NCBI GenBank assembly: GCA_039621445.1 | Contig: CP154954.1 | Span: 31,210,012-31,274,011 of the forward strand | Direction: 5' to 3' | From: Euglena gracilis | Taxonomy: Eukaryota | DNA length: 64,000 bases | Shown: positions 510-57,681 of the stretch, in pieces | Numbering within the stretch: position 1 is the first letter of the stretch | Layout: the number at the start of each line of letters is the position of its first letter | The notes under the pieces: model-generated | Told to the model about the DNA's origin: nothing | Databases searched by the model: none | The model's input: only the letters and a program-made list of their open reading frames with translations | Position numbers and translations under genes: made by a program

Positions 510-3500
510 TTGGGGGTAGCGGACGTACAGCTCCGCCTTTGGGCCAATGAGGCACTCTGTGGCGATCTGCCGTTTTCCAAAAAGCAATTTTGAAAATTGG
601 GTTCGATGGGTGGGAACATGGCTGGGCTGGGTCCATAGAGGCCAGCATCAGCAATTGTGGACTTGCATAAGACGGGGTCTGCCCAGGCTTGCTTAAGGAC
701 CCCCGGGGGGGGGGGGGGGGGGGGTGGGGTAGGGGTGGTCGGGGGGGTACTGGCTAGCCCAATGGTAGACACTGGAAAAAGGGACTAGCTAGACCCCCCC
801 CTCCCCCACGGGGGGGGGGGGTCCGGGGTCCCCGGATGGAAAAAAATCGCGCGCGCCGGAGGAAAAAATGGGTTTTTAACAGGTTTTTGGCTGATTTTGT
901 TACCAAAAATTCCCAAAAAATGGCCAAAACCGGGCAGGTTTTGGCCATTTTGGGGGCCCAAAAAAAAAGTTCGGCGTCTTTGCCGGTCATGGAAAAAAAA
1001 TTCCATAGCTAGCCCTGTAGCAGACCCCCCGGGGGGGGGGGGGGTCTGCTAGAAAACCACTAGCCAAATGTGGACTTGCATCGGGACTGGGTCTGCCCCC
1101 CCCCCAATCCCCCCCCCAATGTGGCTGGCATTGGGGAACCTCCCCCAAATGCAAACAACCCGTTGCTTGAACTTCACCGGGCAGGCTGAAAGGTGGCTGA
1201 ACTTTGGGCAAAACAACAAAGAAATGCCTCTTGTGATGAAGGAAAGGGGTGGCATTTTTTTTGACGAAAAACGCCTGTCTGCCAGCCCAAAAAAATGAGC
1301 AATGGTCGTCAAGTTGGTTGGGTGATTTTGTTGCTGATTGCTTTCGATTGGAGCGGAGATCTTCCTTCGCTTTCCCTAAATTTTAGCTTCATTTCCAGAG
1401 GTTTCTTAATTTTGGACTTCGCGGTGGTGCCGGGGGGGGGGGGGCTTCAATTTGGGTGTCGGTCGGTTCGGCCCCACAGGTTGCTGAAAATTGGGGGTTA
1501 CTCACAGCGGGAGGAGAGGATGGCCGCTGGAGGGCGGGGGGGGGGGGAGCACGGCCCCACCTGCTGGCCCTGCCGGCGACCCCGGGCCCGCTCCAAGTCG
1601 CGAAGCACCCGGTGACAGCGGGCGAGGGCGTCCTGCATCTCGCGGTACCGGATGGCCGCCTCCGCCTGGGCGGGTGCCGCCAGGGCCCCGGCCCGGTTGT
1701 CGAGAAGAAGGCTGACGCTCGCGCGCACATGCACGTGTGCGTACCATTAACCGTGCATTCCAAAACCAACAATATTGGTTGAAAGGCCCCACCCACATGG
1801 TTTGGGGAAAGCGTGTGGCTACTGAGGCATGTGGCTCACGGCGGGAAACACAATTGAAGCACAGCATTCGGGGGGAGGGTCAACATTTTGCCACTCCTCA
1901 CACTTGGGGCCCATGGTGAAGGTGTCTTGTGCTATGGGGTGCCTGCACATAGCAGGCAGACCCCTTGGTGAAAATAGTCATTTCGTGGTACCTGGCATGC
2001 CGTGAGGGGAGGGCGGCTCCAGCACTGCCCGGCCCAACCCCAACCCCAGTGCAAAATCCACCCGAATGGCTTCAGGGGGTTCATATTCAATAATTTGGGT
2101 GAAACCTCGACTTCCAGCCACTTTTAGAAAAAGAACACCGCTGCCCATTGGAATTTGTTCGTCAAGGCAAACCCACCCCATTGAAATTGAAAATTGCCAA
2201 CAAAAGGTTTTGCCTGCAAGGGAGGAAAAGGGAGGTTGGTTCTGGACCTTGCTGGGGTGGCCGGCCGTGGGGGCTTGTCCCACCCCCCCCCCCCACTGCC
2301 TGTCCACAGCGCCAACCCACCCATGCGGGGACCGCACCGTGACTGGGGTGCGACCTTCCTTGCAAAGAAGACACGAGCACGTCCCTGCGCGTGGGAAAAC
2401 ACATGTGTGTGGTGTGGCTTATTGTGTTCCGGGGTTCCCCTCGAAGCCTGACAGACGTGGCCCTGCGCACGATGTCCTCCAGGGTCCCCACCTCCTGCAG
2501 CAGCTGATCCGCCTCCGGGCACTGCCGCCAGCGCACGGCGGCCGGTGGTTGGCCGTCGGGGGGCCCGCCTCCCCCGCCCCGTCAGCCCACCCCACCGGAG
2601 AGCGGGGGGCCCAGGCGGGGGGGCCGGCAACCCTGCGGCCGGTAGGCAGCGTTGGCCTGGAGGGCGGCCACCCTGCACCACACGGGGGGAGGGGAGCAGC
2701 GGGCGAGGAGCCAAAAGGTCAGGCGCGGGGACACCGATGACCCCCCAGCAGAGCGGCGGGTGGCGGCACACCGGTCGGCCAGGAGGGCCCACCCCTTCTG
2801 CATGGCGGGCCCGTCCTGCTGCTCCTCGGGCTTCTCCAGCTGGGCGCGCAGCTTGGCCAGGGGATCCCCGGGGGGCCCCGGACCAACACTGCATTTGACC
2901 ACCTGCCCCCCCCCCCAGGGCAGAACGGGAAGGCCTGGTGGGGGGGGTGGTCGACCCCCCCCCTGGGACGAGGGGGGGGGGTCGACCCCTTCCACCCACC
3001 ACAGCATTTGCACCACCAATTTCGGGGAAACGGGGATATTGGCCAGAAAAATTTTGAAAATTTTTTTTGAAAAATGAACCCAAAACACATGATTTTTTGA
3101 TGGAAAACCACATTTTTTCCACAAAAAATCTCAAAAAATTCAGGGTTAAAAATTGGTACTTTTTAGGAGGGGGGGTGAAAAAAAAGAGGTCAAAAAAAGT
3201 GGACAAAATTTTGGACAATCAAATTTTACTGACATTTTTTCTCATTGAAAATTTTTGGACTTTGAATGGCATTTTTTGCTTCAAAAACCTCTCAAAATCA
3301 ACATTTTGAGAAAATGTTGATTTTCTGGAAGGTGTGAAAAAATGGGGTTTTGGCGCCGGAAAATTTTTTTCGGGTCCAAAAATTGGTGCTCCCGGAAATA
3401 CGGGAAGAGGTGGTGGGGGGGTCGAACCCCCCCACCCACCATGCAGGGGGTGGGGGGGGGGGGGGGTCGACCCCCCCCCCGGCCAAACGTCGGTTTACCA

Positions 3501-6500
3501 ACCCCGGGGGGGGGGGGTGCCTTGGTGCCTGCCCATACTAGGCAACAAGGCAAACCCCTCGGGTGGGTGGTGCCCATAGCAGGCACCCCCCGGGGGTCGG
3601 TTTTGGGTCGTGGTGCCCGCCACAATTTCCCCTTGAAAAGGGCCATTTTCGGGCCCCCAGGCACCGGGGGGGGGGGGCATGCTATGGCACTGCTCCCCCC
3701 CAAAAAAAGAAGCCTGCCCCTGACCCCTGTGAACCCACCCCCGACCAGCCCCTCCCCTGGACAGAAACGAGTTCTCTGAAACTCACAACTTGGGGGAGCA
3801 GTCGTAATCTGCCTCCATCCATCCACCCACCACTTGCTGGACATCGCGCTGGGCACAAGGGATGAGTGGCCGGGTGAAACCGATCCAGGCGTTTGCAGAA
3901 ACCCAGGAGATCGCTTCACGTGACTGAATGGATTGCTGAGTAATGTGGCATTTTGGCCGGGGGGGGGGGGGGGGGGGAAAAAGAGGCCAGCGTCCTGCCA
4001 CGGCACTTCGCCACATGATCCCGCGCCTCCGTGAACAGCTGCAGGCGGTCCAGGGTCGCCCCGGCATCCACGCTCAGCCGCTCATACTCCTGTAGCGTGG
4101 CCTGAGCCACGCACAGGGGCCAGGGGTGTGGGCAGTGGCATACACCGCAAGCCATCGCACAACACCCCTCAGGGTGCATCACACAATATTGGTGGAAAAA
4201 ACTTGCACAAATGCTGTTGCCTTGCACACGGTCAAGGTCAACCTTTCTGTTTCAGTGAATGAGATGCAGTTGTACTTAGGATCATACAATTGCTTACCGA
4301 CCCCCCCGGGGGGGGGGGCACTCCACTTTTTTAAAAACCAGTCAGTCACTCATTTTCAAAACGCCAGCCAGTCACTACCCCCCCCCCCCGGGGGGTTGGG
4401 GGTCGGCCACTCAGAAAAACGGCCACTTTCCAGTCACTTTAGGCCATTTTTGGCCCAAAAAATTTTTCCGGCCTTCGGCGCCGGGGTCACTCAAGCCACT
4501 TTTGCCCACTCCTGGCCGACCCCCCCCGGGGGGGGAGGGGGTCCGGGCCAAAAACCAGTCAGTCACTCTACCGTCAGCGGGGCTACCACCGCTCGACGGT
4601 GCCCTATCCTCTGTGGGATGAGGTGGTAACCACTTTGTGGTGAACGGGTGCACAGCCGGTAGCGTTGTATCTTTACCTGTCCTGCCTGTTCCTTCTTATC
4701 CCTCCCCCTTCTCGCTCCGGAACGGCCCTTGGTGCTTGAGAAGTGTCCCAAGATTTTGGGTGGAAAATGGAGTGTCTGGCTCTTTCCCATATTGAATCTT
4801 TTGGTTGGACACGTTAAGGAATGATTGCTGCCAATCTTTCTATGTGTGCCATACGCGGGATGTGCCTATTCATGGCAGAACATATGAACTCCTGTAAGCC
4901 TAGTTGTGATAGCCATGTACGTATTGATGGCAAATCACAAAAACAAAACAAAACAAAAAAAAACTTTTTTGACAAATGATATTGACATGTCTGGTTATTG
5001 GAAAACACACACAAAAGAAACAAGCCGATAGTCCCATTGGTTATTTGTGCATGGTACGAGAAGCATGGGTTGTGACGTGTGAGTGTGTGTGTGCGCATGC
5101 ATGTGTACTATTTTATATCCAATATATATATATATTGATTTTTTTTCCCTCACTTCCAAAGTGAATGCCTTTTTTTTTTATCCTGTCCCTTCCCATCTCA
5201 AAATGACGTTGGAAGATGGTTAACCCACTGGAATGTGTATGACCATCTTCATTTACGTATGTTTGGGCTTGCCAAATCTTGAAAAGGAAAACATAAGAGG
5301 ATGTCTTTCTTCTGGCTCCATTTTCTATGTCCAGCTTGCTTATTTTTTATTTTATTTTATATTGGTTTTCTTATTTTATATTATTTTTTTATTTTATTTT
5401 CCTTCCCCATTCGTGTTTTCTCTGTCCAGGGATCCTCACACGTCCGTGCTGGCCGAGGCCAAAATGTATCCGTGATTTTCTGTGAATTTCCGTGATTTTC
5501 CGTGAATTTCCGTGAATTTCCTGTTTCCGGAAAAGGTCAAAGGCCACATTCCATTCTGCACTGGAGCCATATTTGGGCGGTTGTGGCAGCAGATCGTTTC
5601 TCCATAATATAGTCCTGGAGATCCCCCAGTTCCTATTCACACCTGTATATGAAAAAAAAAACGTACAGGAGGGGAAAAAACAACCTTTTGTCCTTGAATT
5701 TTTTTTTGATTGCCCCTAAATGGGTTGCCAAAACCCTGTCAGCAGACCGATATAGCGATTGACCCTTCCGCATGCAGCCTGGGCGGGAAGGTGGAAAGTC
5801 ATAAAAACCAGACGCCCTCAACTTGTGTGTATTTTTGGAGAACACCTCTGATGCTCTCGAGGTCCAATTTTGTGACCGGGAGACCAGAATGGAGGAAAAC
5901 GGCCACAAAATCATCTGTGATTGTCTGGGTGAGGTTTCGCTTAATTCACCGACTCCCGAAAATCCAACTGCTTCAGTGGAGTGTCCTGGCTAGGAAGAAA
6001 AATTACAAAAAAATGAATTGGACGACATTGTCTGTTTGGAAAGGCAGAGAATAAGCAAAGCATCCCATCAAAATGTGTCTGCACAAACAAAACACATTCA
6101 AAGAAAGACCAATTTTTTTTTCCCGAACCCTCCTCCTCATCCGTGAATTTCCGTGATTTTCCGTGATTTCCGTGAAAATGGCCTTCCGCCCATTTCCGTG
6201 ATCCTCCGTGAATTTCCGTGAATTTCCTTTTCAGGACGTGTGAGGATCCCTGCTCTGTCCATTCCCTTTCCCCATGTGTTGCAGCCATTGTTCACCCGTT
6301 TATGTTTCGGCATCTTCACAGCTCTTCCCGACAGTTTGATGGCCCACTTCACGGCATTGTCGCTGGAGGAGCAAGCCTTGGCGGCTTCCCCAAAGACAGC
6401 CTTCCCGATTATGTCAGTGGGGAAAGCACCTGACACCAACGAAGTAGTGGTGTCAGCTCGCATCTATTCCTCAAAAAAGGAAGTGCACCGTATTCCAGCA

Positions 6501-9500
6501 TCATCGGGACCATGCCTCTCCTCAGTAAATTACCTCTGCATTGGCCCTCCCTCTCCATTTCACTCAGAAACACACACTATCTCATATTCATATTCACACT
6601 CACACATGCGCGCCTCTCCCTCTCTCTCTATCTCTTATCTCTTCTTCTGGTTTCCATTTGTTCTCCCGCATTTTTTTTTGCATTTTTTAGTAGGGACTCA
6701 CTCCACGGTTGGGCACAAAAAAAAAACCCAAAAAATCCCTCCGACGTTGTGCAATAAGGTTTTTTTTGGGTTGTTGTTGTTGTTGTTGTTGTTGTGTTAT
6801 TTAACAAATGATAAATTATTATTTATTGTAATAATAATAATAATAATATTATTATTATATTTAATAATAATAATATTTTATAATATAATTATAATAATAT
6901 CATTATATTACAATATTTATATACATTTTTTATATAATATTTTTTGTTATATATTATTTTATATATTATTATATATTATTAGATATATTAGGTTATTATT
7001 AATTTTAAATATAATAGTAACTACAGGTTTCCGCAGGGGCTGTTTCCCCCCCCTTGATATGTCGACAGAAGGGAACCCTGCCTCTTAAGTGGCCCTCCAC
7101 AGCATGGATGTCCAACACACCTGCTAGATGAAAAAGTTATGAGCGTGTTCACGAGGTAAGACCGGAATGATTTTCTTTTTCTCCCCCTCTGAGAGTTGAT
7201 GTATGGGCCGGATTACTTCGCTCCATCAGTCTTTGGTGGCCCATGATCACTGGCGCTTTACCAGCAACCAGCATGGCCACTCTCCATAAGGGTTTGCCAG
7301 CTCTGGGAGTGGAGTCTTGGAGTGATGTACTTGCTATACTCCTGATGCACTACCCAGGGTGGGATGAAGAGAAAAAACTGGTTTTTCAGGCTGAGGTTGC
7401 TGATGAGTCTCCCGACGTCGAAGTGGCCAATACACATGTTTGCCTGAGTTACATTGTTCTGTTTATTCCCCCCCCTAAGCTTGAATGTATTTCGTACATA
7501 GGTTATGTATGTAGTGTGGGATTGCTTGTTGTTATCTTGTTTGCTTGTATGTTCCCCGTTTTCCCCTTGAGGACAACAAAAGCCATCCCATTTCCAAAAA
7601 AAAAACGGATAAACAAAACGAGTCTGTCCAATCGCATTTCTGGATACTCCACACAAATTTCTTTTTCCAATTTTGTGTTGTCTCTCAACACAAGGGTGAG
7701 CTTCATATACAATATAATTAGTTGTTGTTCTTTTTTCCATCAATGCATATATAAATTTATTGTTACTAGCAGTATCATTAGGTTTAGTATTATCTTTGTA
7801 TTCTCATACTGATGATTTATGATCGTATTTGCAGTTTTTATTCTACAGTTCTTCAACACCACACAGTTTACATATTTGAGCTCAATCTAGATTGTGTCAA
7901 TCTAGAGAGTTTTTCTCTGCCATGCATCCTCCCTTTCTGGTTTTCTTTTCCTTTTTTCTTTGTTTTTTTTAAGCTACAACGAATGAAGTTTTCGATGGGT
8001 TTAGTCAAACATTTGGCAAAAATACCTGCTGAATCTGCCCCATGAACAATTTATGAAACTGATTTTGAATGGCAGTGGCAAGGAGAAAGAGAAAGACAAA
8101 GATCGACCGAAGACCAAACTTTTGATGCTGATCATATGGTATGCGGTGTACAGTTGGGTATCCAGATCATTGAACAAGCAACCGGTGTATGGGTTGAAGA
8201 TCTCTGAAGATGAGAGTGTTCCAGATTCTCCTTTGAGCCCTGAGGATTGGGCCAAGCTCGTCAAGGCTGTGGTTCAGCAAGTCAAGGCTCCGCCAGATTG
8301 TCCAGGGGTGCTCTCTCATTTTTTGGTTGGAAGGGTTCGTTTGATTATTGTTTTAGTTTTTTTTAAAAAAAAGAAAAACCAAATCGATTTTTTTTTATTG
8401 CCTGCGTTGTTTCAGCAAAAACCTGACACTAGGGGGGTCCCCCCCTACTTCCCATGCCTTCTCCTCTTTTCCCGAGCATTTTATTGGGGACTCAACGACC
8501 AGATTGATTCAGGTGGTGGGTGCCTCAGGTTGTGTTTGCCATAAAATGCTTTTTTTTTTCGTGATCAGAGAGAATATGTCTGTTCCTGGGAGAAGGTGAT
8601 GAAGCCGCAAGATAGATCATCCATTTCTGCGGTGGCTTCGGGTGCCTCTTGGCGGTCGCTTCTGCTTCCCTCGAGTCCCGCTCTGTCTAGTTCTTGTCTG
8701 GTTTTTTCCTTTTTTTTTGGTCACACTCTAATGTTTGATACAGTTATGTTGTGGTGGGGGGAACCATTAAGTTTATCACGTTTGTCTGCTTAGAGGAAAA
8801 GCATACCAAAACACAAGAAGTAATGAAGATGAGAGCCACTTATAGGTGTAAATAGCAAAGAGCTTGTCTGCAGACTTGCCCCTTTGCTAGAGTTGCTAGA
8901 GATGGCTAGGGAGTTACTGGAATTTGCATGCTTTTGTTTATTCTTTCTACTCTATGAGTGCATTCGGTTTGCCATCGTTTAGTAGGGTTATTGTGGGGGT
9001 ACTGCACTTTTTCTTTTTGGGAGCTTGACAGCATTTGGCATTCAAGTTTCATGTGTGTCCACTATGGACACAATTTTAGAGGAGGTCTTGTTTTTACCTG
9101 ACATCATTGTACCTCAAGCCAGTGCGGCATTGAGAGAGCTTCTCATCGAACATCAAGCCGGATCCTCGAACCTGCGCGCTCTTGATGGCATCCGCCTTCT
9201 GCAACAACTTCAGATCGCGCTTCGACAAGTGTGGTCCAAGGTCACCACCAGCCAACGTTTGGCGCTGCTTGGTCCATACAATTTTGTTCTTCTTCTATCG
9301 GTTTATTTTCTTTTATTATTTATTTTTGTTTCCCTTTTTGTTATCTTTTAAAGGGCATAATCCCCGTATCATCTCTGTTTCATGAAAGTGTGGTTGTTGT
9401 AGAGCCAGTGAATTTATCCCAACATACGGTTCATCAAATATTGATCAGGTCTCTTTTGGGGGGGCACACATATACCCGGACTGCCCATTGTTTTTTTTTG

Positions 9501-12500
9501 TTTTTAATTATTCATTGTGGAAGTGAGGATAGTTAGCATAGTTGTGCAGTGGAATCAATGCAAAGGCTGAATGTTGGAACTCTTATGGTTTCAAGACATA
9601 CCGATTACGCATGGGATTCAAAACAAAATGGCATGTTATGGACCCCTGCAGGAATGGAGCACGGCATGTACGCAACTGGCCCCAGTGGGGGTGTCCTCTC
9701 AAGACCAACAGGCCGTGCTCAAGTCCCTCCAAGGCTATCTGGCACAATTACCTCATTCCACCAATTTCATCAACCTGGTGTACTCCATTTTATTTGCGGC
9801 TCCGTCGTTCAGATTTCTTCGGATTCTTCTGTTAAAAATTTATCACTTGCAAGTTTTATTATATGGCATCCAAAAAAAAACCCAAGAAAGGTATTTTGCG
9901 GTTTTTCTTTTGGGAAGGGCAGGATACAATAATTGAGTGTGTAAAGTAAAGTAGTCGAGGTGGTGCAGGTTGAGCTTTTAAGAAAATATTTTTCGTTTTT
10001 TACCGTTAATAGGCTGTTTGAAAAAGAAAATATTTTTCGTGTTTTACCGTTAATAGGCTGTTTGAATCCTTTCCTTTGCCACCTTACAAAGGTTTGTCGG
10101 TCCACAGTGGGTGTAGTTTAGGGTCAAGGGCATTGTGATGATCATTTATTTGGTTTTTTTTGGTTTTCTTTTGTTTGTTGGTTTTTTTTTCTATTTGGTT
10201 GTTGGTCTTGTTTTTTGGAACCCGAGGCAACCTGGTTTCCAACATGGGACTTCGGTGGGTTGCACTCTGTTGTTGATCTTCCTACGCTTCGGGCTGCTTT
10301 ACTGGGCCTGGTCAGAGGGATTTCCTCAAAAACCCAATTAAAAGCCTTCCAAAGGCTTGTGGAGGAGCATCTTAGGAAACAACTTCCCTCTACGTCTGCA
10401 GACCACAGCGTTCAGGCTTTATGTTAGGTTAATTTTAAGTTTCTGTTTGTTTGTTGCGTTTTCCCCCTCCCCCCCCCATTTTCGTTGTTCTTATCTCTCT
10501 CTTGTTTTCGTTGGAGGATAAAAGGAATGAATGGGTCATAATTCCTATGTGCTCATTCGCAATTTTTTGTGGGTATTGTTGTTTTTTTTTGTTTCATTTT
10601 GATTCTTGATTTCCCCCTCCTAATTTATTATAATGGAGCCTGCTGAAGACCTGGATTGGTTTCTGCAAGGTGAGCCCACAACCCCTGTCCCATCTGCTCC
10701 ATCCTCCTCGACTCTCACGGGAGCTACAGAGAGTCCTCGTGTTGCTCCCACCGAAGGACAGGAGCGTCCCAAGCCCTCATGGACCGTCAGACCGCTGGAA
10801 GAGCAGCAGGGCTCCGTGGTCCGTGTTTTGAATTTATCTCGTCAGTTCAGTCCCATGGCGTACACAGAAGCTTTGAGGGAGGTTTTGGATTCTATGGATG
10901 TGGTCACGCCAATGAACGTTGATCGTGGTTTTTGTCACGTCACGATTCCATGTTATAAATATCGCGAGTTATTTCGGACTTCTGACATGGCGGAAGTGAA
11001 GTTGGCTTCTGGGTTATCTTTCAGAATCCGTGGGCGCACTCCAGAAGGGGAACCTTACATCGATTTTCGGAGTTCCGCCGCGAAAAGACCCAGGATCGAG
11101 GCCGGATCCCGTCCACTTCTCTCGCCCACTTCGTCAACACCAGTACTAGCACGTGTTGGTGTGCATCCCATCCCGAGTCCCCCTCCGACTCCGCCGTCAT
11201 TCTCACGTTCCACGGTTGACTCTTTCGCGAGTTCGCCTTTCGCCAAATTACCAGCCTCTTTGGATGATATCATGCCGGTTTTCACACATTATGCTCCTGA
11301 TGTTGGTCGTTTCTACAATTGGTTGTGGATCCCTCCTCTTCCTCCGGCAGCCTACATCCCCCAGGATTTCCTTCGTCTTTTTGGCCCCGCCATAATCAGC
11401 ACAAATAATCAGGTCAAAGTTGATTTCCTCAAAGAAATAGTGCAGAGATTGGATTGTGTGGACAACCATGGTTTCTATTTTGAAAAGACCTGCGATGCCA
11501 AGGGATGTTGGAATTGCGGGTCTGTTTTTTTCGGCTGATAGTTTGTGTCCGGGCTGTTTGAGTAGTTCGTTTTTCTATATTCCGTGCGACACACAAACAA
11601 AATCCTTAATGGGTAATGTGGATGGGTCGGATGCTTTGAAATTCATCCTCAAAGGGCTGCAACAGACCTCAGCCACTTGGTCCACCATGTTGTCGTCGGT
11701 GGCGAGCAAATGGGCTAAAATTCTCCTTAGCAGGCCTCGCCTTCTGTCGACGGGTGGGGTCTACGTGTCCCCTCCTATCATCAATGATGATGCCTTTTTG
11801 GTGTTCTTTTCGATTCCCAAGGATATGCCTCCTCCTCCCAATTTTCCCATCCCTCCCCTGACCAATGAGGAAGTGCGGTGCATATACTCTTCTTTGTGCT
11901 CACAATGTGGAAGGCCCAAGGCAGAAAACATCAAATTCTGACAAACACACTGCCTTTTTTTGTCAAGAGTGCGTTGTGCATCCGTTTGGATAAGGGACAA
12001 ACTTCTGCCAACAAAGTTTTTGCTCAACAGTCTCGTTGGAATCCTTATGGTCTTCCCCTGGAATTTGTGTTACCAGTCACTCCTCGTTTTTCGTTTGACT
12101 GCAACCCGGAACAGCCACCGCCCCCTGATCTCAGGTTTTGGGTGAAGGAATTGGATGCAAAACTGCCCCCGCTTGTTGATGTCACCAATACTCGAAATCC
12201 TGGTTGTTGGAGGATCATGGATTTGAATTGTGGGGGTGGTTCCTCGCTACCTGCGGTTTGTGATTTGATGTCACTTTTGGATCCAGACTTCATTTTTCTT
12301 CAGGAATTGTGGGAGACCGACCCTCGGGACGAGATTGCTTTTCGCCGATATGTTATATTCCTCAGTGCATTCCGTGATCGTGGTCAAGGCTTGTGTATTA
12401 TGGTGCATCGAAGGGTGTTGTGTCCCAATTCTGCATCGCAGATCCTCCCCTATGATTCTCCATGATTGTAGATCTTGGTTAGCTCTGGGGTTTCACGTGG

Positions 12501-15500
12501 GTTCTTCATCTTTCCTTTTGATCAATGTGCATCTTGACCCTTCTTTCAACATGAAACAAAAGGTGGAGGAAATGCATTTGATGGGTGCCTTGATTCATAA
12601 GTCCAAAGCAGGCTGTCTGGTGGCGGGTGATTTCAACATACACCGGACAGCACATTCGTTGATGGAACACTCAACACGTGCTTTCGGTGTCCCGGGTTTG
12701 AGGATACCGTATCCTATGGGGCTCCACACAAATCACACACGAGCAGGTAATCGGCTTTCCGACACAGAGATTGATTATATATATGCAAGTGATTTTTTCC
12801 CCCTCAAGTGGCATGGCCTGATTCCGGGTCCGTCTTCCCATGATTGTGTGGTTAACGACCTCATTATACCACATGTTTTTTCTAATTCTCCTTCCTGGAA
12901 GAGGTATCAGTTTGCTAATGTCCCCGCTTCAAAAATTCAACAGGTGGCAATACTTTTGTCATTTTTCTGGTTTTGGTTGCGTGGTCAAGGTGCACATCCC
13001 AATTTGTGGCTCCGTGTTTACTGGTTTTTGGCTGATAGAGTTTTTGCTCCCTATGATCAACACTCCTCGGCTAAGTCTCTCATACAATTGGGGTTGGCAT
13101 GTGCCGACCGCCGCTCGAGTGATCTTCTCATGCAATGGCGGAGCAAATGTGTGGAGCATCGTTTTTTGGCTGGTTTGCAACTCAGCCATGAAGTCGCTTT
13201 GCAAATCAGCCCAACCTCCTTAACAACAAAATTGATCAACACATGTTCCAAAAAGCCGGGGCCGTATCCCAAATTAGCTTCTGGCCGGGGGGAGGATGGG
13301 CAAACTGGCAAGACTTCGGAAGAGGAAATCATCAGTCAATTTAAAATGTATCATGCCAATCGGGGTTTATCCATGAATGTGGGTCATTTGTATGCAGACC
13401 TTGATGTGGTATCAAATCTTCCACAGGATGATCCCTCTTTCTTTCATCTATTTGAGGCCCGTCGTGAAGGGTTATGGAACAATGATCTCATGAGTCGGCG
13501 CCTGCATCTCTTGGCTCGGCCAATGTGACGCTTTGATTCCATCCGAGGCATCACAGAGTCTCTGCGTTGCGGAGGTTCCAATGCCACTTCATTGGATTCG
13601 CTCCCCATGGCAGTTCTACAGCACTTTACCTTGGCAGGCATGGTGGCTTTGAGCCATTATGTGTTTCTTCTACGGGGTCTCCCAAAGGCTCTGAGCAATG
13701 AAGTCATTCAATTGGCCATTCCCAAGGGTGGTCCACAACATTTGTTCACTTCCTATCGGCCCATCAAACTCGGATCCGCCATAAACTGTGTGGAGGCTGG
13801 GTCAGTTCATTTAGAGGCAAGTTTTCGCGCTGAAATGGATGGTTCTTTCACATCCAACCTCTACTCTTATCGGAAGGAAGTGACTCCTTTTATGCTTGCC
13901 TTTGCATTAAGGTCCACAATTTTGCTGTGTTTGAAGGAAACATCAGAGGCCCACATTTTGGATGGTGATGAATCGGGAGCTTTTGATACTCCTGTTCGGG
14001 AGGATTTGGCATTGTTGGATCATATGTGGAAAGGCCAATGTGCTTTTGGTAGTTGGGCTCATCGATTTTACGCCACCCAGAGAATTCGCCTTCTAACACA
14101 TGAGGGTTTGACACAACCGATGAAGACAGGGGATGGCCTGTCACAAGGTTGCAAATTTGCCCCGACCGCTTACAACCTAATTGGCGTTGGGAGGAACATA
14201 ACCTTCATGAAATCATTTCAAAGTACGTTGTGTCACAACGGCTTACCCCTATGTGAATTTATCTATAGTGACGATCGCCGATGGGTCAGCCCCTGTGCGA
14301 ATGATTTGGCTATTGCGGCACGAGTTGCGAATGCTATCTCACAGGAAGCGTGTGCAATCAATAACTTGCAAAAAATGAAGTATGTTGCTTTGAAACGCTG
14401 TGCTGATGGTTCCATTTGTACTTTTCGAACCGAAGTTGCCATCAATGATCAGTGGGTGCAGTCTGTGTGTGAAATTCCTTTGATGGTGGGGTTATCAATG
14501 CAACCAGGTGCTATAAATCCTTCCCTACTCCCCAGAATCAAAATTCGCTTACAAAAATTGCGGCAATTCATAAAGAAATTGAATCCAAATTTCCTGTTGA
14601 CTTTACGTTGTACAATAGCGTATGCGATATCAATACTGGATTATTCCTCCCGGGGCTGTTTTGTTCCATCATCAATTTTGATGAAAGTACAACCTTTCCT
14701 TAATCAAGTAATAAGTGCATGCCTTTCCTTCCCCCCAGACACCCCCATTTCACTGATGACTCTCCCCATGGCACATTTTGGTTGGGGCTTTCCAAATGTG
14801 ACTCATCGAGCCCGACTCCAATTTATTTTGGGTTACTTCGAAGCAATCGATGGTAGGAACAATTTGTGTAGATTCGTGATGCGTCAATCTAGGGATGACT
14901 CCGGTGTGCAGAGTGACTATGCTTTGATTCGTTCTTTATTTACCCAATATGATCTCTCCGAGGTTGTTCCAGCCTCATTTTTTTCCCCATGCCTACCCAG
15001 CCTTTGCCTTTCACTTCAGCATGCCTCCGTACTATATATCACAACGGATGCTTCGCTAGTCTCTCTGCAGGATGGTGTGTTCGATCTTCAACGAGCGGGG
15101 TTGGGTGTTGTCATCACGGATGGCATTGTTTATCAAGAGATCTCGTGGGGGTTCTGTTCCGTGGCAGCTTGTTCCACTGATCTGGAATGGATGGGGAAGC
15201 TTTTGGCAGTTTGGTTGGTGCGCTTCTTCCGGGGCAAGATAGTACTGTTGTGTGACAACTCATCCGTACAACTTTGCAACTTCACACAATGGGTGAAAAA
15301 GAACAAAAAAGAAAAAAAAAAAAAGAAACGTCAAAAACAGAGAAAACCCCCACCCTCTTTCCTCCTCCCCCCCCCCACCGCCCCCCCCGTCTCTTCCTTT
15401 GTTTTACCGTTGAGAGCAAGGGAAAGAAGCGAGCAGGAATCTAAGAACCTAACACTGACAAGTAAGGATAACGTAAAGTACCTGCCTTGGTGACCACTCA

Positions 15501-18500
15501 TTCCGTACAACTTTGCAACTCACACAAATGGTGAAAATTCCCTCTCTCCCTGTGGGTGGACCGTTGGGCAAAGATGATTTTGGGTTTGCCGGTTTGGGAT
15601 CATATCACGGAGGGGTGGCTTCAGGCGGAACACGATTCACTCTCTCAAGGATTGGCATGTTCGTGGCAGAAACGGGCAGATTATTTGGCTGGTTGGGGCT
15701 CAACTCATGTGGAATCGGCTGGTTTCCCTTTGGCTGATATGCTCTCTTCTCTGGCGGACCCCCCCTTTCCTTTGTTTTGGATGGAAGGCTTGATCGTTTC
15801 CTTGAAGAGATTTGTGACCAAGCTCTACGAACTGTGCACTTTCCGTGATTCAGTCGCTTTCGCCACCCTGAATGCTGGTGCCTTTGTCGTCTGATTTGGA
15901 AAAAGTTGGTTTTATCAAGTGATGTTCCATTGGTCATGCACAAAGTGGCAGCCTACCTGCGTGCTGTGCCCTTTTTGTCTCGGAGTGCTCATTACAATGT
16001 GGAATGTCGGTTTTGTCATGCCGAGGTCGGTTTTTTGCCCAGGCACATTGTTGGATGTGTGGGATTGTATGAAGTATTGATCAAGGCTTTCTCGGAGGTC
16101 CTGCAAACAGTATCAACAGGTTCACTGGGTTCAATACTGGAAAGGTCGGACTTGGCTGCGGTTCTGCAATCTCAAAATGAGAGGTGGGTCATTGCACTTC
16201 TTCCTGAAGAAAACGTCGTCCGTGTGCGTCATTTTTTTGAGCAAAAAGGTTTCCTTTTGCTGTGTGTTACATGGTCGGGCCTCATCAGTGTACCACATCG
16301 ATTGAGTATGCTTTTCTCCACAAGTGTTCGTTTGGAATTGTGTGCCATAGTATTACGGACATTATCAGCTGCCCCACGAGGATTCTTCACAACATCAGAT
16401 ATCGACATTCCACCGCACACCAATTTTCGGGGTTTGGTGGGTTGGTCAAGCAACGACGCACGTGGGTGCCAACCGTCTTTCCGGGTCCAACGGAGGCTCG
16501 CATGGATCTTGCTTGCACAATTTGGAGGGTGGTCGTTTGTGTTCTTCTCGTTCCTTGTCGGTATACCTCCCCCCCCCGATGTTTGTATCCACCTGACCTA
16601 TTTGATGTAAGGGTTTTTGCTTGTGATGTTAACCATTGTTTTGTCATCTCTAACCATCCTGGGAGAGGCCCTGCATGCGTGCTGTGTGATTGCCACATAA
16701 CAGCTCCCTCGTATTGGCATCTCCATCGCTCCTATTCCGAAGGTGCGCTGTACATCTCAGCAGACTTCGGCTCATCGCCCCTCTAACCTCCAACACAACG
16801 CTTCGATCAGGGTGCTCCACTTCATGTGTTCTTGTGTATGTCTGTAGCTCATGTATCCTCTTCCCCCCCTATTCATCTACCATCGCTATGTCAAGCACCA
16901 AGGGCATGCGCACTTGCTCATTAACCTCTGCCATGGTGTGCTATACACACTGCGATGTACCGTACGGCGATGTACCCTCTGCAATGCGATTTTATGGATT
17001 GCATCGTTTTGGTTGGTGCTGCCCTCTTTCCACCCTGGTCCGACGTGAGTGGTTGTGATGTTTGGGTTGACTCTTTCCGCTCTCGTTTGGTAGGGCTGTG
17101 TTTGTGCTCGAGTTGTTTGTGCTGCCCCCTTCCCGCTCTCGTCCGGTAGGGCTGAGCGTGTGCTGGTGTTGTTCGTGCTGCCTCCTTCCCGCTCTCGTCC
17201 GGTAGGGCTGAGCGTGTGCTTGTGTTGTTCGTGCTGCCTCCTTCCCGCTCTCGTCCGGTAGGGCTGAGCGTGTGCTTGTTTCGTTCGTGCTGCCCCCTTC
17301 CCGCTCTCGTCCGGTAGGGCTGAATTGTTATTTTATTTTATTTTATTTTATTTTTTTTTTCATTTTCCTTCCTTCCCGCAATAAATGCTAAATAAGCCCC
17401 TTTCGCGTTGCCTGTACCCGCCCAGCCTCACCAAACCAACCCAAACCAGTCAATACCTATAAAAAACCCAGTCCCCCCCCCCTGGGGGGGGGGGGGGGGG
17501 TCGGTCAGTGCTTAAGCAATTGCCTGCTTAGGATGCCAATCGATGAGAATATCCTCTTGTAACCTCAAAATAACCTCAAAATTGCACACCCAAAGAGAGG
17601 ATTGGAATCGACCTTGTCAAAGCGCTGCTACTCACAAAAAATAGCAATCGGTTCGGAATCATGGTCCTATCTCTTAGAGGCTGGCTGCTTCCCTCAAATA
17701 AAGCGCATCACAACGGCTATTTCAGAAGCACCAACGTTGATTGCAGCTTGCACACTGACCGTTAAAATTTGTTCGAAACAAAAAATGGGCGTAAAGCTGC
17801 CACACCCAGATTTTTTTAGGACCCGGGAATATCCCGAGGGGTCCAAAAAATCTCAGCGCTTCGCACCAAAAATAGAGGAAATCCCCCCTGGGGAGAGGTT
17901 TCACTCTCACTCAGTCCGAACCCCCCCCTGGGCCTTTAAATTTTAAAAAATCTCTGGGCTGCCAAGAACAGAACGCAGCCCAGCAAAACCTTCTGCGCCT
18001 CGGAGAGGATGGGCTCGCTCTTCCTCAGCAGCTCGGCGCTGGCACACGCCTCTGCCAGGGCAGAACGGGAAGGCCTGGTGGGGGGGTCGACCCCCCCACC
18101 CGGGAGGTGGGGGGGGGGGGTGGGTCAACCCCCCCCACCCACCACAGCATTTGCACCAATTTCGGGGAAACGGGGATTTTGGCCAGAAAAATTTTTGCTT
18201 CTTTTTTGAAAAATGAACCCAAAACACATGATTTTTTGATGGAAAACCACATTTTTTTCACAAAAAAATCTCAAAATTTTCCGTCCTAAAAACTGGGACT
18301 TTTTAGGGGGGGAAACGAAGGTCAAAAAAAGTGGACAAAATTTTGGCACAGTCAAATTTTACTGACATTTTTTCTCGTTGAACTTTTTTGGACTTTGAAT
18401 AACATTTTTTGCTTCAAAAACCTCTCAAAATCACCCTCTTGAGAAAATGTCAAATTTTTTGAAGGTGTGAAAAAATGGGGTTTTGGGTGGGACCCCCTAT

Positions 18501-18756
18501 GTGGGTCCCAAAATGGGTCAAAAAAACACCCGGCACCGAAGGCGCCGAAAAAATTTTTCGTGTCCAAAAAATTGGTGCTCCCGGAAATACAAGAAGAGGT
18601 GGGAGGGCCGCCTCCCCCCCCCACCCACCACTCTGGCTGTTCGGCCGATTCCCGTTCTGCCCTGGCCTCGGCCCAGAGCTTCTTGGCCGCCTTGCAGTTC
18701 CCCTTTTCCACCTCTGCGGGGTACTGGGCCACGGCGACCTCCAACCGGCTGGCACT
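510..18756 (-). CDS. Multi-exon hypothetical protein (alpha-helical/coiled-coil-like); 5' end, 3' end and some internal junctions unresolved
   Basis: GC3-rich exons with compatible phases: 18756-18668 (SASRLEVAVAQYPAEVEKGNCKAAKKLWA), 18050-17990 (ACASAELLRKSEPILSEAQK), 4101-4007 (ATLQEYERLSVDAGATLDRLQLFTEARDHVA), 2902-2772 (DPLAKLRAQLEKPEEQQDGPAMQKGWALLAD), ~2540-2457 (EADQLLQEVGTLEDIVRRA), 1717-1561 (VSLLLDNRAG...LRDLERARGRRQGQQ), 566-510 (IATECLIGPKAELYVRYPQ). No family recognised. Confidence 0.55.
2916..3490. mobile_element. Copy of the CAGGGCAGAACGGGAA MITE family inside an intron, right end degenerate; other relatives at ~44862-45050 and ~47402-48420
   Basis: Same left TIR and internal sequence (GAAAAATGAACCCAAAACACATGATTTTTTGATGGAAAACCAC) as 18056-18664. 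Confidence 0.75.
5427..6252. mobile_element. hAT (Ac-like) MITE
   Basis: Perfect 19-bp TIR CAGGGATCCTCACACGTCC; flanking duplication CTCTGTC(C); subterminal TTCCGTGA repeats near both ends. Confidence 0.85.
10633..16785 (+). pseudogene. Frameshifted retrotransposon polyprotein: Pro/Cys-rich N-terminal part, APE endonuclease, reverse transcriptase, RNase H, zinc knuckle
   Basis: APE (~12200-12860): MDLNCGG, FIFLQELW, LLINVHLDP, VAGDFN, EIDYIY, SSHD. RT (~13600-14800): YRPIKL, GDESGAFD, GLSQGCKFAP, IYSDD. RNase H (~15030-15700): YITTDAS, AGLGVV, DLEW, LLCDNSSV, WLQAEHD, RADYLA. CRFC...HIVGC at ~16005. Several frameshifts. Confidence 0.88.
17076..17360 (+). repeat. 56-bp tandem repeat (~4.4 copies) plus (TTTTA)n tail at the retrotransposon 3' end
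   Basis: Unit CCCGCTCTCGTCCGGTAGGGCTGAGCGTGTGCT... starts at 17076, 17132, 17188, 17244 and 17300. Confidence 0.9.
18051..18667 (-). other. Nonconventional intron made of an intact hAT-type MITE (element 18056-18664)
   Basis: Perfect 16-bp TIR CAGGGCAGAACGGGAA; TSD GCCGAGGC/GCAGAGGC (minus strand). Removing 3 nt + element + 5 nt gives in-frame KLWAE|ACASAELLRK. A 1-nt slide also allows a GC...AG reading. Confidence 0.75.
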
Positions 18757-20534
18757 CTGCGGAGAAGGTCCGGCCCGGCCTCGCCATGCGGAACCCTCCC
18801 TACCCCCACTACGCCAAACCTGCGGGAAGCGAACCTTCGGAGGCGTCCAGAAGGGGAATGAATGAAATCCAAAGCAGACGGAGCCATGGGACTGGCAACA
18901 CTTTCTTTGCGCTCTCGGCAAAGCAGCAGGGGCGATAAGGCAAAACAGAGGTATTTTTTAAAGGACCCGGGGTTCACTCACCCAGCACCCAGGCCCCCTG
19001 GGGGGCTGGGAGAGCCCAATTTCAAGGATCAGTTTGGGCAAATTCTTTTCAGTGCGAAGAACCGAAAACAGAGGGGCCTCCCCCTCTCCACAGGGTTCCC
19101 ACTCAGCCTGACCCCGGGGGGGGGGGGGGGGTTTGGACCCCAGGGTACGTGATATCGGAGGCCCTTGGAAAACTGCCGGGAAATTGCGGGAAAAAAATTG
19201 CGGAAATTGCAGAAGAATTGCGTGGAATTGTGGTTGCAGTTTTGGGATTTAGCACATTTCTTCCAGAGAGGACTTAACAAAATTTCACAAATTTGGTCAT
19301 TTTGCAACATAGATGTGCTTTGAGCCGTTATTCACATTTTTTTGCAACAAAAAGGTCCAAAAGCATCATTTTGTAGTTTGGGAAATGATCCTGGAAACAT
19401 GGAATTCCTTAGGTCCAAAAATCCAAAAAAAAGACACAACAAATAATTGGAAAAATTTTGTCTCGGGTAAAATCTGGTCCAGGATACTTTTTGAATTTTT
19501 GCTTTTTGGGTTTGAATTTTCCTCAGTCGAAAGTATTTCCCACAAAAATTGGGAGAAAACCTAAAAAAAAAAAGCTGAAAAATTACCAAATTTTGTGAAA
19601 TATTGTAAATTCTGGCAAATGTTGGCAAATTTGCAAAAAAAAAAATCAAAAAAATCACTTGGGGTCCCTTGTGACATGTTCAAGGAATGGCCAGCATTTC
19701 ACCTTCAATCTCAGGTTCAAGCGGAAAAAAAATTGCGGAAAGGGAATAAAAATGCAGAATAATTGCAGAGAATTGCGAAACTTGCAGAAAAATGGCGGAT
19801 ATCAATCCCCCCCTGAAAACCCACATCACCACCAGGTCACCATTTTTTAATATAAAAAAAAGTCTGGTGCAAGTGAAAAAAGTGAGAGCCCACATACGCT
19901 GGTGACTGCCTTTCTGTCCATGGGGCAAGCAACAGGCGGCACTTCTGGAACATTCAACGGCCCTTCGGCTCCGTGAATGCCATTGAGCAGCAGCACCCAC
20001 CAAGCGCCTGGAGAAAAGCAACAGAGCAAGCAAGCCAGGTGAAAACTTCCGTTGGAGCGTCGTTTTGTGCACCCTGTGTTTGTGGGAAGAAGACACCTTT
20101 CCGGCGAGACCCATATCTGCATATCTCCCAAGGAGGGCAAGAACTGTGCAAACAGATATTTGTTATGTGCAAACATTAATTTGAACAATTGGCACCCAGC
20201 CACCAGACAACACGGCGGTAGCCCCACCCTCATTGAAGGTGTGCAGGGGCAACTTACCAACAGGTTGCACTGAACACAAAAAAAGCAGCACAAATGCAAA
20301 AGCCGTGTCCCACGTCGCACAGCTTCGAAGGGTCAAAAGGCGCTGTACAGTGAAAAAAAGGATTCTCGCAGGGTGAGCAGCGTGAAAGAAGGTGCGGCTG
20401 ACGTCTGGATTGCCCCTCGGGCACAGATGCCAGGGGTGTATCAGTCAATGCGCCATATGAACTCAAATGGCCGGGAAAGCCCAGTGTGGTGTGAGGTGCA
20501 AACACATGCGGCCTCGGGCTGCATCGCGTTTGTA

Positions 20535-46640
<26,106 letters not shown>

Positions 46641-46665: not shown

Positions 46666-47552
46666 ATGTTGCGGGATTGATCAACAAACACTCAAAACGA
46701 GGACCAAGCGATCAACTGCAATTGACTGGGGTCTTGGTTTGATTTACGGTGCTTCCACTTAATTAAGAATTAGAGCCAATGTGGGAATCACCGTTTCAAA
46801 AAAAAATTGACAAATCGTGGTTGGCTTTTGTTTTTTTAATTTATTTTTAAAACCAAAAAATGCCTAATCCTTAAATAGGACTAAGAACCACAATCGGCAA
46901 CTTTTTGGATGGTGCTTTTTGTTGTTGTATTTTTTTTCTGTTTCATCATCATCATCATCATCATCATCATGACCCTGGCCCCGTTCCCTGCTTTTTTTTT
47001 CAGGATTGACCCCCCCCCGAGAATTTGGGCTTGCTTCTTGTGAAGGCAAAACAGCGCAAAGCACATTGGATGCACCGGGACTCAAGCCCGAGTTTTCCGA
47101 CGCAGCGGCCAGCACACATTCTTTGCCTTCATGCCAACAGCAGGACCCGAAAGTTGCCTCAGGTCTCGCTGAAGTCGTTAGAAATCATCAACAAAACTGG
47201 GTCTTCAGCATGAGTGACGGACATTGTATCAACCACCACAAGAATCGCCGGCTGAAGGCCAGCCCTTTGGCCGAAACCAACCAGCTTTTTGAATAGTTGA
47301 ATAACTCTTTGCAATGAGACACCTCTACGACCCCCACCCCTCCAAAATACTCACGGCCATCCCCCCCAGGACCCTGTCTTGGGAGGGTCCTGGGCCAGGG
47401 TTAGGGCAGAACGGGAAGGCCTGGTGGGTCGACCCCCCCAGCTGGGAGGGGGGGGGGCCACCCACCACAGCATTTTCACCAATTTTGGCCAACGGGGATG
47501 TTGGCCGGGGAAAATTTTTGAAACTTTTTTTTGAAAAACGAACCAAAAATAC

Positions 47553-47731
47553 AGGACTGAAAACACACATCCACCGGATCGAAAACACACATCCACCGGA
47601 ATGAGAACGTACATCCATCAGTCTGGAAACACACATCCACCGGACTGAAAACACACATCCACCGGACTGAAAATGCACATCCACCGGATTGAAAGCACAT
47701 GTCCACCGAACTGAAAATGCACATCCACCGG
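47553..47731. repeat. ~22-bp minisatellite (GGACTGAAAACACACATCCACC), about 8 copies
   Basis: Degenerate tandem array inside a MITE. Confidence 0.85.
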
Positions 47732-47777
47732 TGATTTTTTGATGGAAAACCACATAATTTAACAAAAAAAAATCTCA

Positions 47778-52732: not shown

Positions 52733-57681
<4,949 letters not shown>

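Follow-up and report, generated by a model that had tools for sequence, protein, structure and literature searches.

A hAT-like miniature transposon in a FYVE-domain gene of Euglena gracilis that probably acts as a nonconventional intron

How nonconventional introns come to interrupt euglenid genes is the question raised by a locus of Euglena gracilis at which a repeated 609-bp element lies in the middle of a coding exon. Of the introns of E. agilis, 71.8% are nonconventional, and so are about 57% of the catalogued introns of E. gracilis. An origin from MITEs has been proposed for them since 2013 on the basis of their inverted ends and short repeats; papers published between 2013 and 2025 term their origin unclear or a mystery. 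Milanowski et al. (2014; PMC3935182) wrote that euglenid genomes had so far yielded no identified transposable elements. The window analyzed here is the whole stretch of 64,000 nucleotides in which the element lies.

RESULTS

Anatomy of the element

Sequence inspection revealed an intact element of 609 bp at positions 18056-18664, interrupting a minus-strand coding exon. Its terminal inverted repeats are 16 nt long and perfect, with the sequence CAGGGCAGAACGGGAA (18056-18071 and 18649-18664), and a repeat finder returned arms of 18 nt (18054-18071 and 18649-18666; 100% complementary, 577 nt apart). The flanking 8-bp target-site duplication consists of GCCTCTGC (18048-18055) and GCCTCGGC (18665-18672), equal at 7 of 8 positions. 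The sole mismatch, located in the 18665..18672 copy, is silent, being at the third position of an Ala codon (GCC versus GCA). On the gene strand, the first 5 nt of the 18048..18055 copy are intronic and the last 3 nt are exonic under the boundaries proposed below. The ends of the element were set at CAG by comparison of copies, in which the preceding base differs (C, C, C, T, G, and T). The GC content is 0.47 for the whole element and 0.39 for its interior. These results bear out the first-pass annotation, made from the sequence by itself, which had described a 609-bp element with perfect 16-bp terminal repeats and a duplication matching at 7 of 8 positions. Features of the element and of the interrupted exon were as follows.

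18056..18664, no strand assigned: MITE, a non-autonomous DNA transposon, hAT-like (inverted repeats, family copies, composition)
18056..18071, plus strand: left terminal inverted repeat, CAGGGCAGAACGGGAA, 0 mismatches
18649..18664, minus strand: right terminal inverted repeat, identical 16-mer on the opposite strand, 0 mismatches
18048..18055, no strand assigned: duplication copy GCCTCTGC, downstream in the gene sense (sequence and end scan)
18665..18672, no strand assigned: duplication copy GCCTCGGC, upstream in the gene sense (sequence and end scan)
18051..18667, minus strand: proposed nonconventional intron, 617 nt, GGC-CAG...CTG-GCAGA, then G
19898..19921, minus strand: exon 1 (MDRKAVTS) with the start codon; donor GTATGT, acceptor ...CCGCAG at 18757
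18668..18756, minus strand: exon 2, first part (SASRLEV...KKLWAE; transcript match and codon bias)
17990..18050, minus strand: exon 2, second part (ACASAELLRKSEPILSEAQK); a GT-AG intron of 13,888 nt comes next

None of the six ORFs of at least 113 aa that overlap the element contained a Pfam family. The Pfam scan, which covered 150 of the 168 non-low-complexity ORFs of at least 110 aa in the window (178 ORFs in total; the 18 shortest were dropped), gave no match within or adjoining it, and the Rfam scan of the whole window gave 0 matches at the gathering score. The 16-mer end motif (up to 3 mismatches) occurred 7 times in the window versus 0.73 times expected (shuffle maximum, 3; 0 of 100 shuffles reached 7).

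Host gene and coding continuity

The host is a minus-strand FYVE-domain gene, and its transcript-derived protein, EG_transcript_11399, is uninterrupted across the insertion site, where it reads ...KKLWAEACASAKLLRNSEPILSEAQK.... Names of this form are those used for the E. gracilis transcriptome. The upstream part of the exon matched this eukprot protein (E value of 6.2e-10; 100% identity, with 78% of the 40-aa query aligned), the single protein among 17 candidates to have an E value of ≤1. A dinoflagellate source for the DNA, suggested by its G/C runs and the GC-AG reading described below, was rejected on the strength of this match. The 31 residues upstream of the insertion site are 100% identical between window and transcript. 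The minus strand from 19921 to 504 encodes residues 1-193 and 202-222, uninterrupted by any stop or frameshift; residues 194-201 were sought in the window and not located. Among the 214 mapped residues, 4 differ (residues 3, 44, 48, and 106), and 2 of these fall 4 and 8 codons after the insertion site; the window has R3, E44, and K48, and the transcript has K44 and N48. The transcript protein, 98% identical to the window exons and without the element, may therefore derive from an empty-site copy, be it another allele, a paralogue, or the gene of a different strain.

The two exon flanks are strongly codon-biased in one minus-strand frame, with GC3 values of 0.90 (30 codons) and 0.95 (20 codons) and a GC content of 0.55 at codon positions 1 and 2. 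A GC3 scan in 150-nt windows was too coarse, picked up one cyclophilin exon only, and gave way to a segment-based scan. Deletion in silico of 617 nt (18667..18051) restored the reading frame, giving ...KKLWAEACASAELLRKSEPILSEAQK and the peptide ...KKLWAE-ACASAELL.... Retention of the element would shift the frame (617 mod 3 = 2) and lead to a stop at codon 135 of the read-through. Earlier claims that the element splits a codon-biased exon and that removing it with one duplication copy rejoins the coding sequence thus hold.

Junctions and the nonconventional splicing code

Nomura et al. (2025) give an experimentally defined code for euglenid nonconventional introns, 5'-N3CDG-/-CH'GN5-6|R. The interval 18667..18051 agrees with this code in all four features tested. 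CAG at positions +4 to +6 is complementary to CTG at positions -8 to -6; GGC (3 nt) precedes CAG as one spacer and GCAGA (5 nt) follows CTG as the other, compared with 3 and 5 to 6 nt in the rule; a purine opens the downstream exon (G at 18050); and the ends pair perfectly over 16 positions (18 when the flanking GC is counted), with 13 pairs of the 16 lying beyond CAG/CTG. The predicted fold of the whole element likewise pairs both ends (minimum free energy of -269.7 kcal/mol versus -209.8 ± 7.0 kcal/mol in 20 shuffles; z = -8.59). CCAGG at positions +3 to +7 agrees with the E. gracilis consensus as presented in PMC11170887. The published junction preferences come in pairs: exon -1 and intron -1 favor a pyrimidine, intron +1 and exon +1 a purine, and intron +3 and exon +3 a C. 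In 18667..18051, both pyrimidine positions are instead occupied by A, a difference from the known nonconventional introns.

The 3-nt spacer is identical to the opening 3 nt of the downstream exon, and the 5-nt spacer agrees at 4 positions with the final 5 nt of the upstream exon. The position of the intron can consequently be slid: its ends are GG...GA at the position set by the code, and a slide of 1 base (18666..18050) gives GC...AG. On these sequence features, the 609-bp element is probably excised from RNA as a euglenid nonconventional intron. The proposal of the first-pass annotation that the element acts as an intron is retained as to the interrupted exon and the continuous transcript protein, and the published code agrees with it; the boundaries are those of the euglenid nonconventional class rather than of a generic intron. 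The locus is a further example of a known intron class whose MITE origin was already hypothesized.

The slidable ends also allow a reading in which the conventional U2 spliceosome removes the element as a GC-AG intron (18666..18050), that is, as an "introner" like those of dinoflagellates and Micromonas, with both sites supplied by the duplicated ...AG|GC target. The in-frame GC...AG ends would yield the same mRNA as 18667..18051; transposon-derived introns of Polarella with 8-nt duplications are described as using several such frames, including both sites from the duplication; and 659 of 28,337 E. gracilis introns are given as GC-AG in PMC11170887. Such an intron would count as a "hybrid" or "intermediate" type. 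Its 5' end, GCCAGG, does not contain the GTGTG motif that, per the same source, pairs with U1 in E. gracilis, and neither that motif nor a C-rich pyrimidine tract was found (the last 20 nt include 12 pyrimidines). Every one of the 15 conventional introns mapped in the window begins with GT, in 12 cases with GTG, and the nonconventional code is fully satisfied. Removal as a conventional intron is accordingly considered unlikely.

Retention of the element is about equally improbable. In that case the window would carry a disrupted allele or paralogue, and the intact transcript would come from a sister copy with an empty site, as might be suggested by the 4 residues that differ among the 214 mapped, of which 2 are no more than 8 codons away from the site. 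All other mapped exons are nevertheless intact and 98% identical to the transcript, and the sole mismatch of the duplication is synonymous. In the knock-in experiments of Nomura et al. (2025), moreover, both natural and fully synthetic code-conforming sequences were spliced from a foreign exon.

Other introns of the host gene

As in other genes with euglenid nonconventional introns, conventional and nonconventional introns are combined in the FYVE-domain gene. The intron at 2468..1676 conforms to the code, and a duplication trace is absent (2 of 8 positions match, by eye). Two other nonconventional introns of the gene misfit the code. At about 2638..2525, no duplication trace was found and the spacers sum to 7; at 4000..2868, no duplication trace was found and CTG is missing at the expected place.

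Family copies in the window

Within the 64-kb window, 18056-18664 is the only intact member of its family. Other copies are about 76 to 86% identical to it and are truncated or rearranged.

About 2916..3441, plus strand: copy 2, 85.7% identity over 448 nt and 83.5% over 91 nt; left end intact, right end missing
44862..45042, plus strand: copy 3, 83.2% identity over 190 nt; left 180 nt only, upstream of a PPWD1-like gene
About 47402..48398, plus strand: copy 4, rearranged; left and middle parts at about 47403-48207 in three pieces (76 to 89%), right arm inverted at 48208-48398 (77.8% over 194 nt)
29269-29342: family fragment of 74 nt, 87.8% identity

Copies at 2916, about 44862, and about 47402 had been annotated as lying outside coding sequence. 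The copies are real; copy 2 sits within another nonconventional intron of the FYVE-domain gene (4000..2868; 1,133 nt). Coding evidence was looked for around copy 3 and none was found. In the adjacent PPWD1-like gene, the junction from residue 66 to residue 80 could not be placed with a guide protein of 81% identity. The left and middle parts of copy 4 are broken by a 22-nt tandem array and C-rich runs. The first-pass annotation had called the MITE young and the intron gain recent, which is at most tentative: the ends of the intact copy are perfect, but the other copies are 14 to 24% diverged and broken, so that the family as present in the window is not demonstrably young or active. The view that one family is both an ordinary MITE and an intron stands as far as a repeated family with inverted ends and a duplication is concerned. 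A self-contained intron is formed by one copy only in the window, one broken copy is nested in another intron, and the rest lie outside mapped genes.

Affiliation with hAT transposons

YARNG is the terminal motif of the hAT superfamily. The end of the element, CAGGG, conforms to it; the duplication has a length of 8 bp (flanking 8-mers equal at 7 of 8 positions); and the element is small (609 bp), non-coding, and accompanied by four further copies or fragments in the window, as would be expected of a hAT-type MITE. The length of the duplication and the terminal motif together suggest that the element is hAT-like.

A hAT transposase remnant was found at 53.2-56.2 kb (Dimer_Tnp_hAT, 32.9 bits versus a cutoff of 21.4, E value of 5.5e-8; two DUF4371 pieces). 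The remnant had 1,917 relatives with an E value of ≤0.001 among 2,868 candidates, and the matches listed carried DUF4371 (PF14291) and hAT C-terminal dimerization (PF05699) domains. It spans 52806-59692 with ends CTAGGGCTGTTTCG... that have only AGGGC in common with those of the MITE, and it was ruled out as the parent of the MITE by these differing ends. No recognizable target-site duplication was found at its flanks, and no autonomous hAT with matching (CAGGGCAGAACGG-type) ends was found within the 64-kb window.

A scan of the window for CAG...CTG elements with 12-nt inverted ends (up to 2 mismatches) and flanking 8-mers equal at 6 or more of 8 positions returned 4 cases, versus a mean of 0.25 (maximum, 2) in 20 shuffles. 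Two of these elements are unrelated to the family.

28247-28640: CAG...CTG element, duplication 7/8, inside a conventional intron
43224-43580: CAG...CTG element, duplication 8/8, upstream of a gene

Given these positions, the 8-bp duplication is independent of splicing. An independent parallel comes from E. agilis, in which the one nonconventional intron described as recently gained is flanked by direct repeats of eight nucleotides (PMC4770533). Milanowski et al. (2016) raised double-strand-break repair as an explanation for those repeats. Under an alternative reading, such repair, or reverse splicing of an excised intron RNA, would account for the present locus as well, with inverted ends existing only for the needs of the splicing code. 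An origin other than by transposition is nonetheless very improbable for this element, given its relatives at four other window sites (most of them not introns of their own), the 8-bp duplications of two unrelated CAG...CTG elements outside exons, and spacers that match the local exon ends (3/3 and 4/5) where reverse splicing would have carried the old spacers along.

DISCUSSION

Taken together, the observations indicate that a hAT-like miniature transposon probably landed in exon 2 of the E. gracilis FYVE-domain gene and now acts as a euglenid nonconventional intron. As read from the anatomy (perfect 16-nt CAGGG ends, an 8-bp duplication, and diverged or truncated relatives), insertion took place at the DNA level; the element would have been mobilized in trans by a hAT transposase. 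In the pre-mRNA, the ends are predicted to pair into a stem of 16 to 18 bp that would juxtapose both junctions. Under the published code, the nonconventional splicing machinery would then recognize the CAG and the CTG at the base of the stem and cleave 3 nt upstream of CAG and 5 nt downstream of CTG, the second cut being followed by a purine. Since 3 + 5 = 8, excision would take the element with exactly one duplication copy (617 nt), which in silico restores the frame that preceded insertion. With the frame restored, the insertion would be phenotypically silent and able to persist as a new intron.

Many features of the proposed intron are those of euglenid nonconventional introns in general, namely, CAG/CTG pairing, 3- and 5-nt spacers, a downstream purine, paired ends, and slidable direct repeats. 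Unlike published examples, it visibly belongs to a dispersed family, its 16-nt ends are perfect, and its 8-bp duplication is nearly so; the publications consulted propose such an origin rather than demonstrate it. With hAT non-autonomous elements it shares the 8-bp duplication, the short CAGGG inverted ends, and the lack of coding capacity, and the window holds a hAT transposase remnant. Splicing of maize Ds from transcripts has been described (Giroux et al., 1994, as cited in PMC3935182); that splicing is imprecise and carried out by the ordinary spliceosome, unlike the excision proposed here.

Introners (the Polarella classes with 8-nt duplications and those of Micromonas and Aureococcus) also arise when a DNA transposon with inverted ends enters an exon and is removed with one duplication copy. 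Introners of dinoflagellates, Micromonas, and Aureococcus have spliceosomal GY-AG (or GA) sites and form large, near-identical families, whereas the Euglena element follows a structure-based code without GT-AG and has one intact copy in 64 kb. Noncanonical introns of the tunicate Fritillaria borealis are likewise MITE-like insertions turned into introns with non-GT-AG ends, and they are removed by a modified spliceosome (review PMC11282704). According to the same review, the nonconventional introns of Euglena are removed late and independently of U1 and form full-length circles once excised.

That the 3- and 5-nt spacers add up to the 8-bp duplication is a new lead from the present analysis. 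More tentatively, and at somewhat less than even likelihood, the Euglena nonconventional splicing code may be an RNA-level counterpart of hAT transposon excision. The conserved CAG and CTG would then be hAT terminal bases, and the two spacers would be the 8-bp hAT duplication, hence removal without a footprint; the paired junction preferences resemble duplicated target bases under this hypothesis. If it is true, most nonconventional introns would descend from hAT-like MITE insertions, and neutralizing this one transposon superfamily would be what their splicing machinery evolved for.

At this locus a single sequence combines four properties: it belongs to a dispersed family marked by inverted ends and a target-site duplication, it interrupts a conserved exon, it is missing from a matching transcript, and it fits the splicing code exactly. 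The locus points to a specific superfamily, hAT, and to an arithmetic reason for the 3- and 5-nt spacers, and a hypothesis of intron origin thereby becomes testable genome-wide in Euglena assemblies. It provides a concrete example of how nonconventional introns may arise.

The interrupted FYVE-domain gene

The upstream part of the interrupted exon matched EG_transcript_11399, a transcript-derived eukprot protein of 387 aa that carries a FYVE domain (PF01363), at 100% identity over 78% of the query (E = 6.2e-10). This was the sole protein with an E value of ≤1 among 17 candidates, and "EG_transcript" names follow the style found in the accessible text of the Euglena gracilis transcriptome paper. 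Codon bias on both sides of the element, as claimed in the first-pass annotation, was confirmed, with GC3 values of 0.90 (30 codons) and 0.95 (20 codons) in one minus-strand frame. EG_transcript_11399 reads uninterrupted across the insertion site (...KKLWAEACASAKLLRNSEPILSEAQK...). A gene model was obtained by mapping this protein onto the window.

Table. Model of the FYVE-domain gene (minus strand)
19921-19898: exon 1 (MDRKAVTS)
End at 18757: intron 1, GT-AG
18756-17990: exon 2, split by the element
17989..4102: large intron, 13,888 nt, GT-AG
4000..2868: intron without GT-AG, 1,133 nt
About 2638..2525: intron without GT-AG, 114 nt
2468..1676: intron without GT-AG, 793 nt
Down to 504: remaining exons

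Intron types were mixed, with GT-AG ends in three. No stops or frameshifts were found across the 214 mapped residues, and residues 194 to 201 of EG_transcript_11399 were not found in the window. Because four of the mapped residues differed (window/transcript: 3, R/Q; 44, E/K; 48, K/N; 106, E/K), the transcript is suggested to come from another allele or strain, or from a paralogue. The 13.9-kb conventional intron also contained a LINE-like retroelement (11869-15490, plus strand), comprising two ORFs with weak Exo_endo_phos matches (17.7 and 20.1 bits, under the cut-off of 24.5) and, downstream, a 654-aa ORF that had no Pfam match and appeared reverse transcriptase-like by eye.

Anatomy of the element

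A 609-bp element with perfect 16-nt ends and a 7/8 duplication was borne out by the sequence at 18048-18672. For the inverted ends, a repeat finder returned a perfectly complementary pair of 18-nt arms (18054-18071 and 18649-18666). The start was placed at CAG because the preceding base was not constant when the copy ends were compared (C, C, C, T, G, and T).

Table. Features of the element
18056-18664: element, 609 bp, ends set by copy comparison
Terminal inverted ends: 16 nt, perfect, CAGGGCAGAACGGGAA
Flanking 8-mers: GCCTCTGC and GCCTCGGC, matching at 7/8 positions

The end motif, allowing ≤3 mismatches, occurred 7 times in the window versus 0.73 expected, and none of 100 shuffles reached 7. 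Inverted CAG...CTG ends with flanking 8-mers matching at ≥6/8 positions were found in four cases, one of which (34388-38014) was rejected as a G-run artifact, versus a mean of 0.25 and a maximum of 2 in 20 shuffles of the window. The architecture of ends and duplication was far beyond chance expectation.

Intron boundaries and splicing code

Removal of the element plus one duplication (617 nt) had been predicted to restore the reading, and comparison with EG_transcript_11399 upheld this: any of 11 slides of the deletion restored the protein sequence, and six slides, via a shared GAGGC, were equivalent at the nucleotide level. Retention in RNA would shift the frame, with a stop at codon 135 of the read-through.

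The code established for E. gracilis nonconventional introns by knock-in mutagenesis is 5'-N3CDG-/-CH'GN5-6|R, plus base pairing between the stretches that follow CAG and precede CTG (as given in Nomura et al. 2025, PMC12501133). The interval 18667..18051 reads GGC-CAG...CTG-GCAGA, then G, and all four requirements of the code were found there, with end pairing of 16 to 18 bp and a predicted fold that closes the element ends (z = -8.59 versus 20 shuffles). CCAGG at +3..+7 equals the E. gracilis consensus as stated in PMC11170887. As for the weaker junction rules in the accessible text of PMC4770533, 18667..18051 has purines at both intron +1 and exon +1, as well as C at exon +3, and lacks the two pyrimidines. 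A conventional intron at 18666..18050 would have GC-AG ends but is less likely, because its 5' end, GCCAGG, lacks the U1-pairing GTGTG (consensus as stated in PMC11170887), all 15 conventional introns mapped in the window start with GT (12 with GTG), and introns with both motifs, 0.8% of all introns, are considered substrates of the nonconventional machinery by Nomura et al. (PMC12501133).

The reading of a MITE acting as an intron was right in outline, and its treatment as a generic intron was not: on the code, the element is a candidate MITE-derived intron of the known euglenid nonconventional class. The 2468..1676 intron of the same gene also fit the code exactly (GCG-CAGGGCC...GGCCCTG-GCGGC|A), with termini similar to the MITE's CAGGGC and no duplication left at its junctions.

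Family copies and other elements

Copies reported at 2916, ~44862, and ~47402 do exist, but all are damaged, and their description as lying outside coding sequence was incomplete: the first is inside an intron of the FYVE-domain gene.

Table. Family copies, other elements, and neighboring gene
2915-3441: family copy, 84-86% identity, right end missing, inside the 1,133-nt nonconventional intron
29269-29342: family fragment, 74 nt
44862-45042: family copy, 83% identity, left 180 nt only, upstream of the PPWD1-like ORF
47403-48207, with inverted right arm 48208-48398: family copy, 76-89% identity, upstream of the PPWD1-like ORF
28247-28640: unrelated CAG...CTG element, 394 bp, ends CAGGCTTTTGCT... 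/ CAGGCTTTTGC, 8-bp duplication 7/8
43224-43580: unrelated CAG...CTG element, 357 bp, ends CAGACTTTCATT... (CAGACTTTCATTTA-type), duplication ATCCCATG 8/8
42661-20538, minus strand: PPWD1-like gene (WD repeats and cyclophilin domain), about 16 exons
52806-59692, plus strand: degenerate hAT transposon, 45-nt inverted ends, 87% complementary, CTAGGGCTGTTTCGATTAATCG...
53719-54357 and 54530-55192: DUF4371 pieces of the hAT remnant, 24.9 bits each, below cut-off
55988-56224: Dimer_Tnp_hAT of the hAT remnant, 32.9 bits (cut-off, 21.4)

No coding signal was detected around the 44.8- and 47.4-kb copies by segment scan and Pfam searches of ORFs. In the latter copy, a tandem array of a 22-nt unit (8.1 copies, 47554-47731) breaks up the sequence, long C-rich runs are present, and the right arm is inverted in place.

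The 28247-28640 element sits in a 6-kb GT-AG intron of the PPWD1-like gene, and a relative with 74% identity occupies 741-1063, within a FYVE-gene intron. The 43224-43580 element, which precedes the PPWD1-like ORF by about 450 bp, had no further copies in the window. Since these unrelated elements share the architecture, insertion of CAG...CTG elements bearing 8-bp duplications into this genome does not depend on their becoming introns. The PPWD1-like gene, mapped using a euglenid protein of 81% identity, had GT-AG at 12/15 junctions and no GT-AG at a single one, 39145/38200, which had CAG at +4..+6 and CTG off the expected distance. Its introns contained two long pure trinucleotide arrays (26138-26283, about 48 units; 38834-39045, about 70 units).

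The hAT superfamily is characterized by 8-bp duplications and termini of the YARNG/CAGGG type. For the hAT remnant, with a transposase split over several frames, 1,917 of 2,868 candidates were relatives at E ≤ 0.001. The remnant had no recognizable target-site duplication, and it was ruled out as the parent of the MITE because its ends differ. It also contained a 68-nt unit in two copies (56395-56462 and 57240-57307; 96% mutually complementary), built from a pair of perfect 33-nt hairpin arms that include AAAACAGGGCAT.

Proposed origin and removal

The most likely working scheme is insertion, end pairing, and N3/N5 cutting. From the anatomy, a staggered 8-bp cut would have allowed insertion of the element as DNA. 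After transcription through the element, its ends are predicted to pair, and cuts, by the published code, would fall 3 nt ahead of CAG and 5 nt past CTG. Because 3 + 5 = 8, the RNA would lose the element and one duplication copy, restoring the original message. The 3-nt spacer GGC repeats the opening three bases of the following exon, and the 5-nt spacer GCAGA agrees with the preceding exon's final 5 bases at 4/5 positions, the mismatch being a synonymous third position. Arrival by reverse splicing is disfavored by these spacers of native rather than foreign sequence, which argues for insertion as DNA.

Nonconventional introns account for 71.8% of introns in E. agilis (PMC12501133) and for 4,498 + 11,653 of the 28,337 introns in an E. 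gracilis catalogue (PMC11170887). The proposal of a MITE origin dates from 2013 (PMC3935182) and recurs in PMC6221363, PMC11282704, PMC12621601, and PMC12501133, in the accessible text always as a hypothesis. Transposable elements had not been identified in euglenid genomes according to Milanowski et al. 2014 (PMC3935182), and the origins were still called unclear by Nomura et al. 2025 (PMC12501133). Eight-nucleotide direct repeats, for which break repair was suggested as the cause, flank the sole newly gained intron seen within E. agilis in Milanowski et al. 2016 (PMC4770533). The nearest analogue among spliceosomal introns is the dinoflagellate introner-like elements with 8-nt duplications, as described in 10.1101/2020.10.14.339549. 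A literature search of openly accessible full texts returned no naming of hAT for euglenid nonconventional introns, no dispersed family containing such an intron, and no link of the 3/5 spacers to an 8-bp duplication. The element adds a clean, checkable example of a candidate MITE-derived nonconventional intron, together with the hAT and 3 + 5 = 8 lead.
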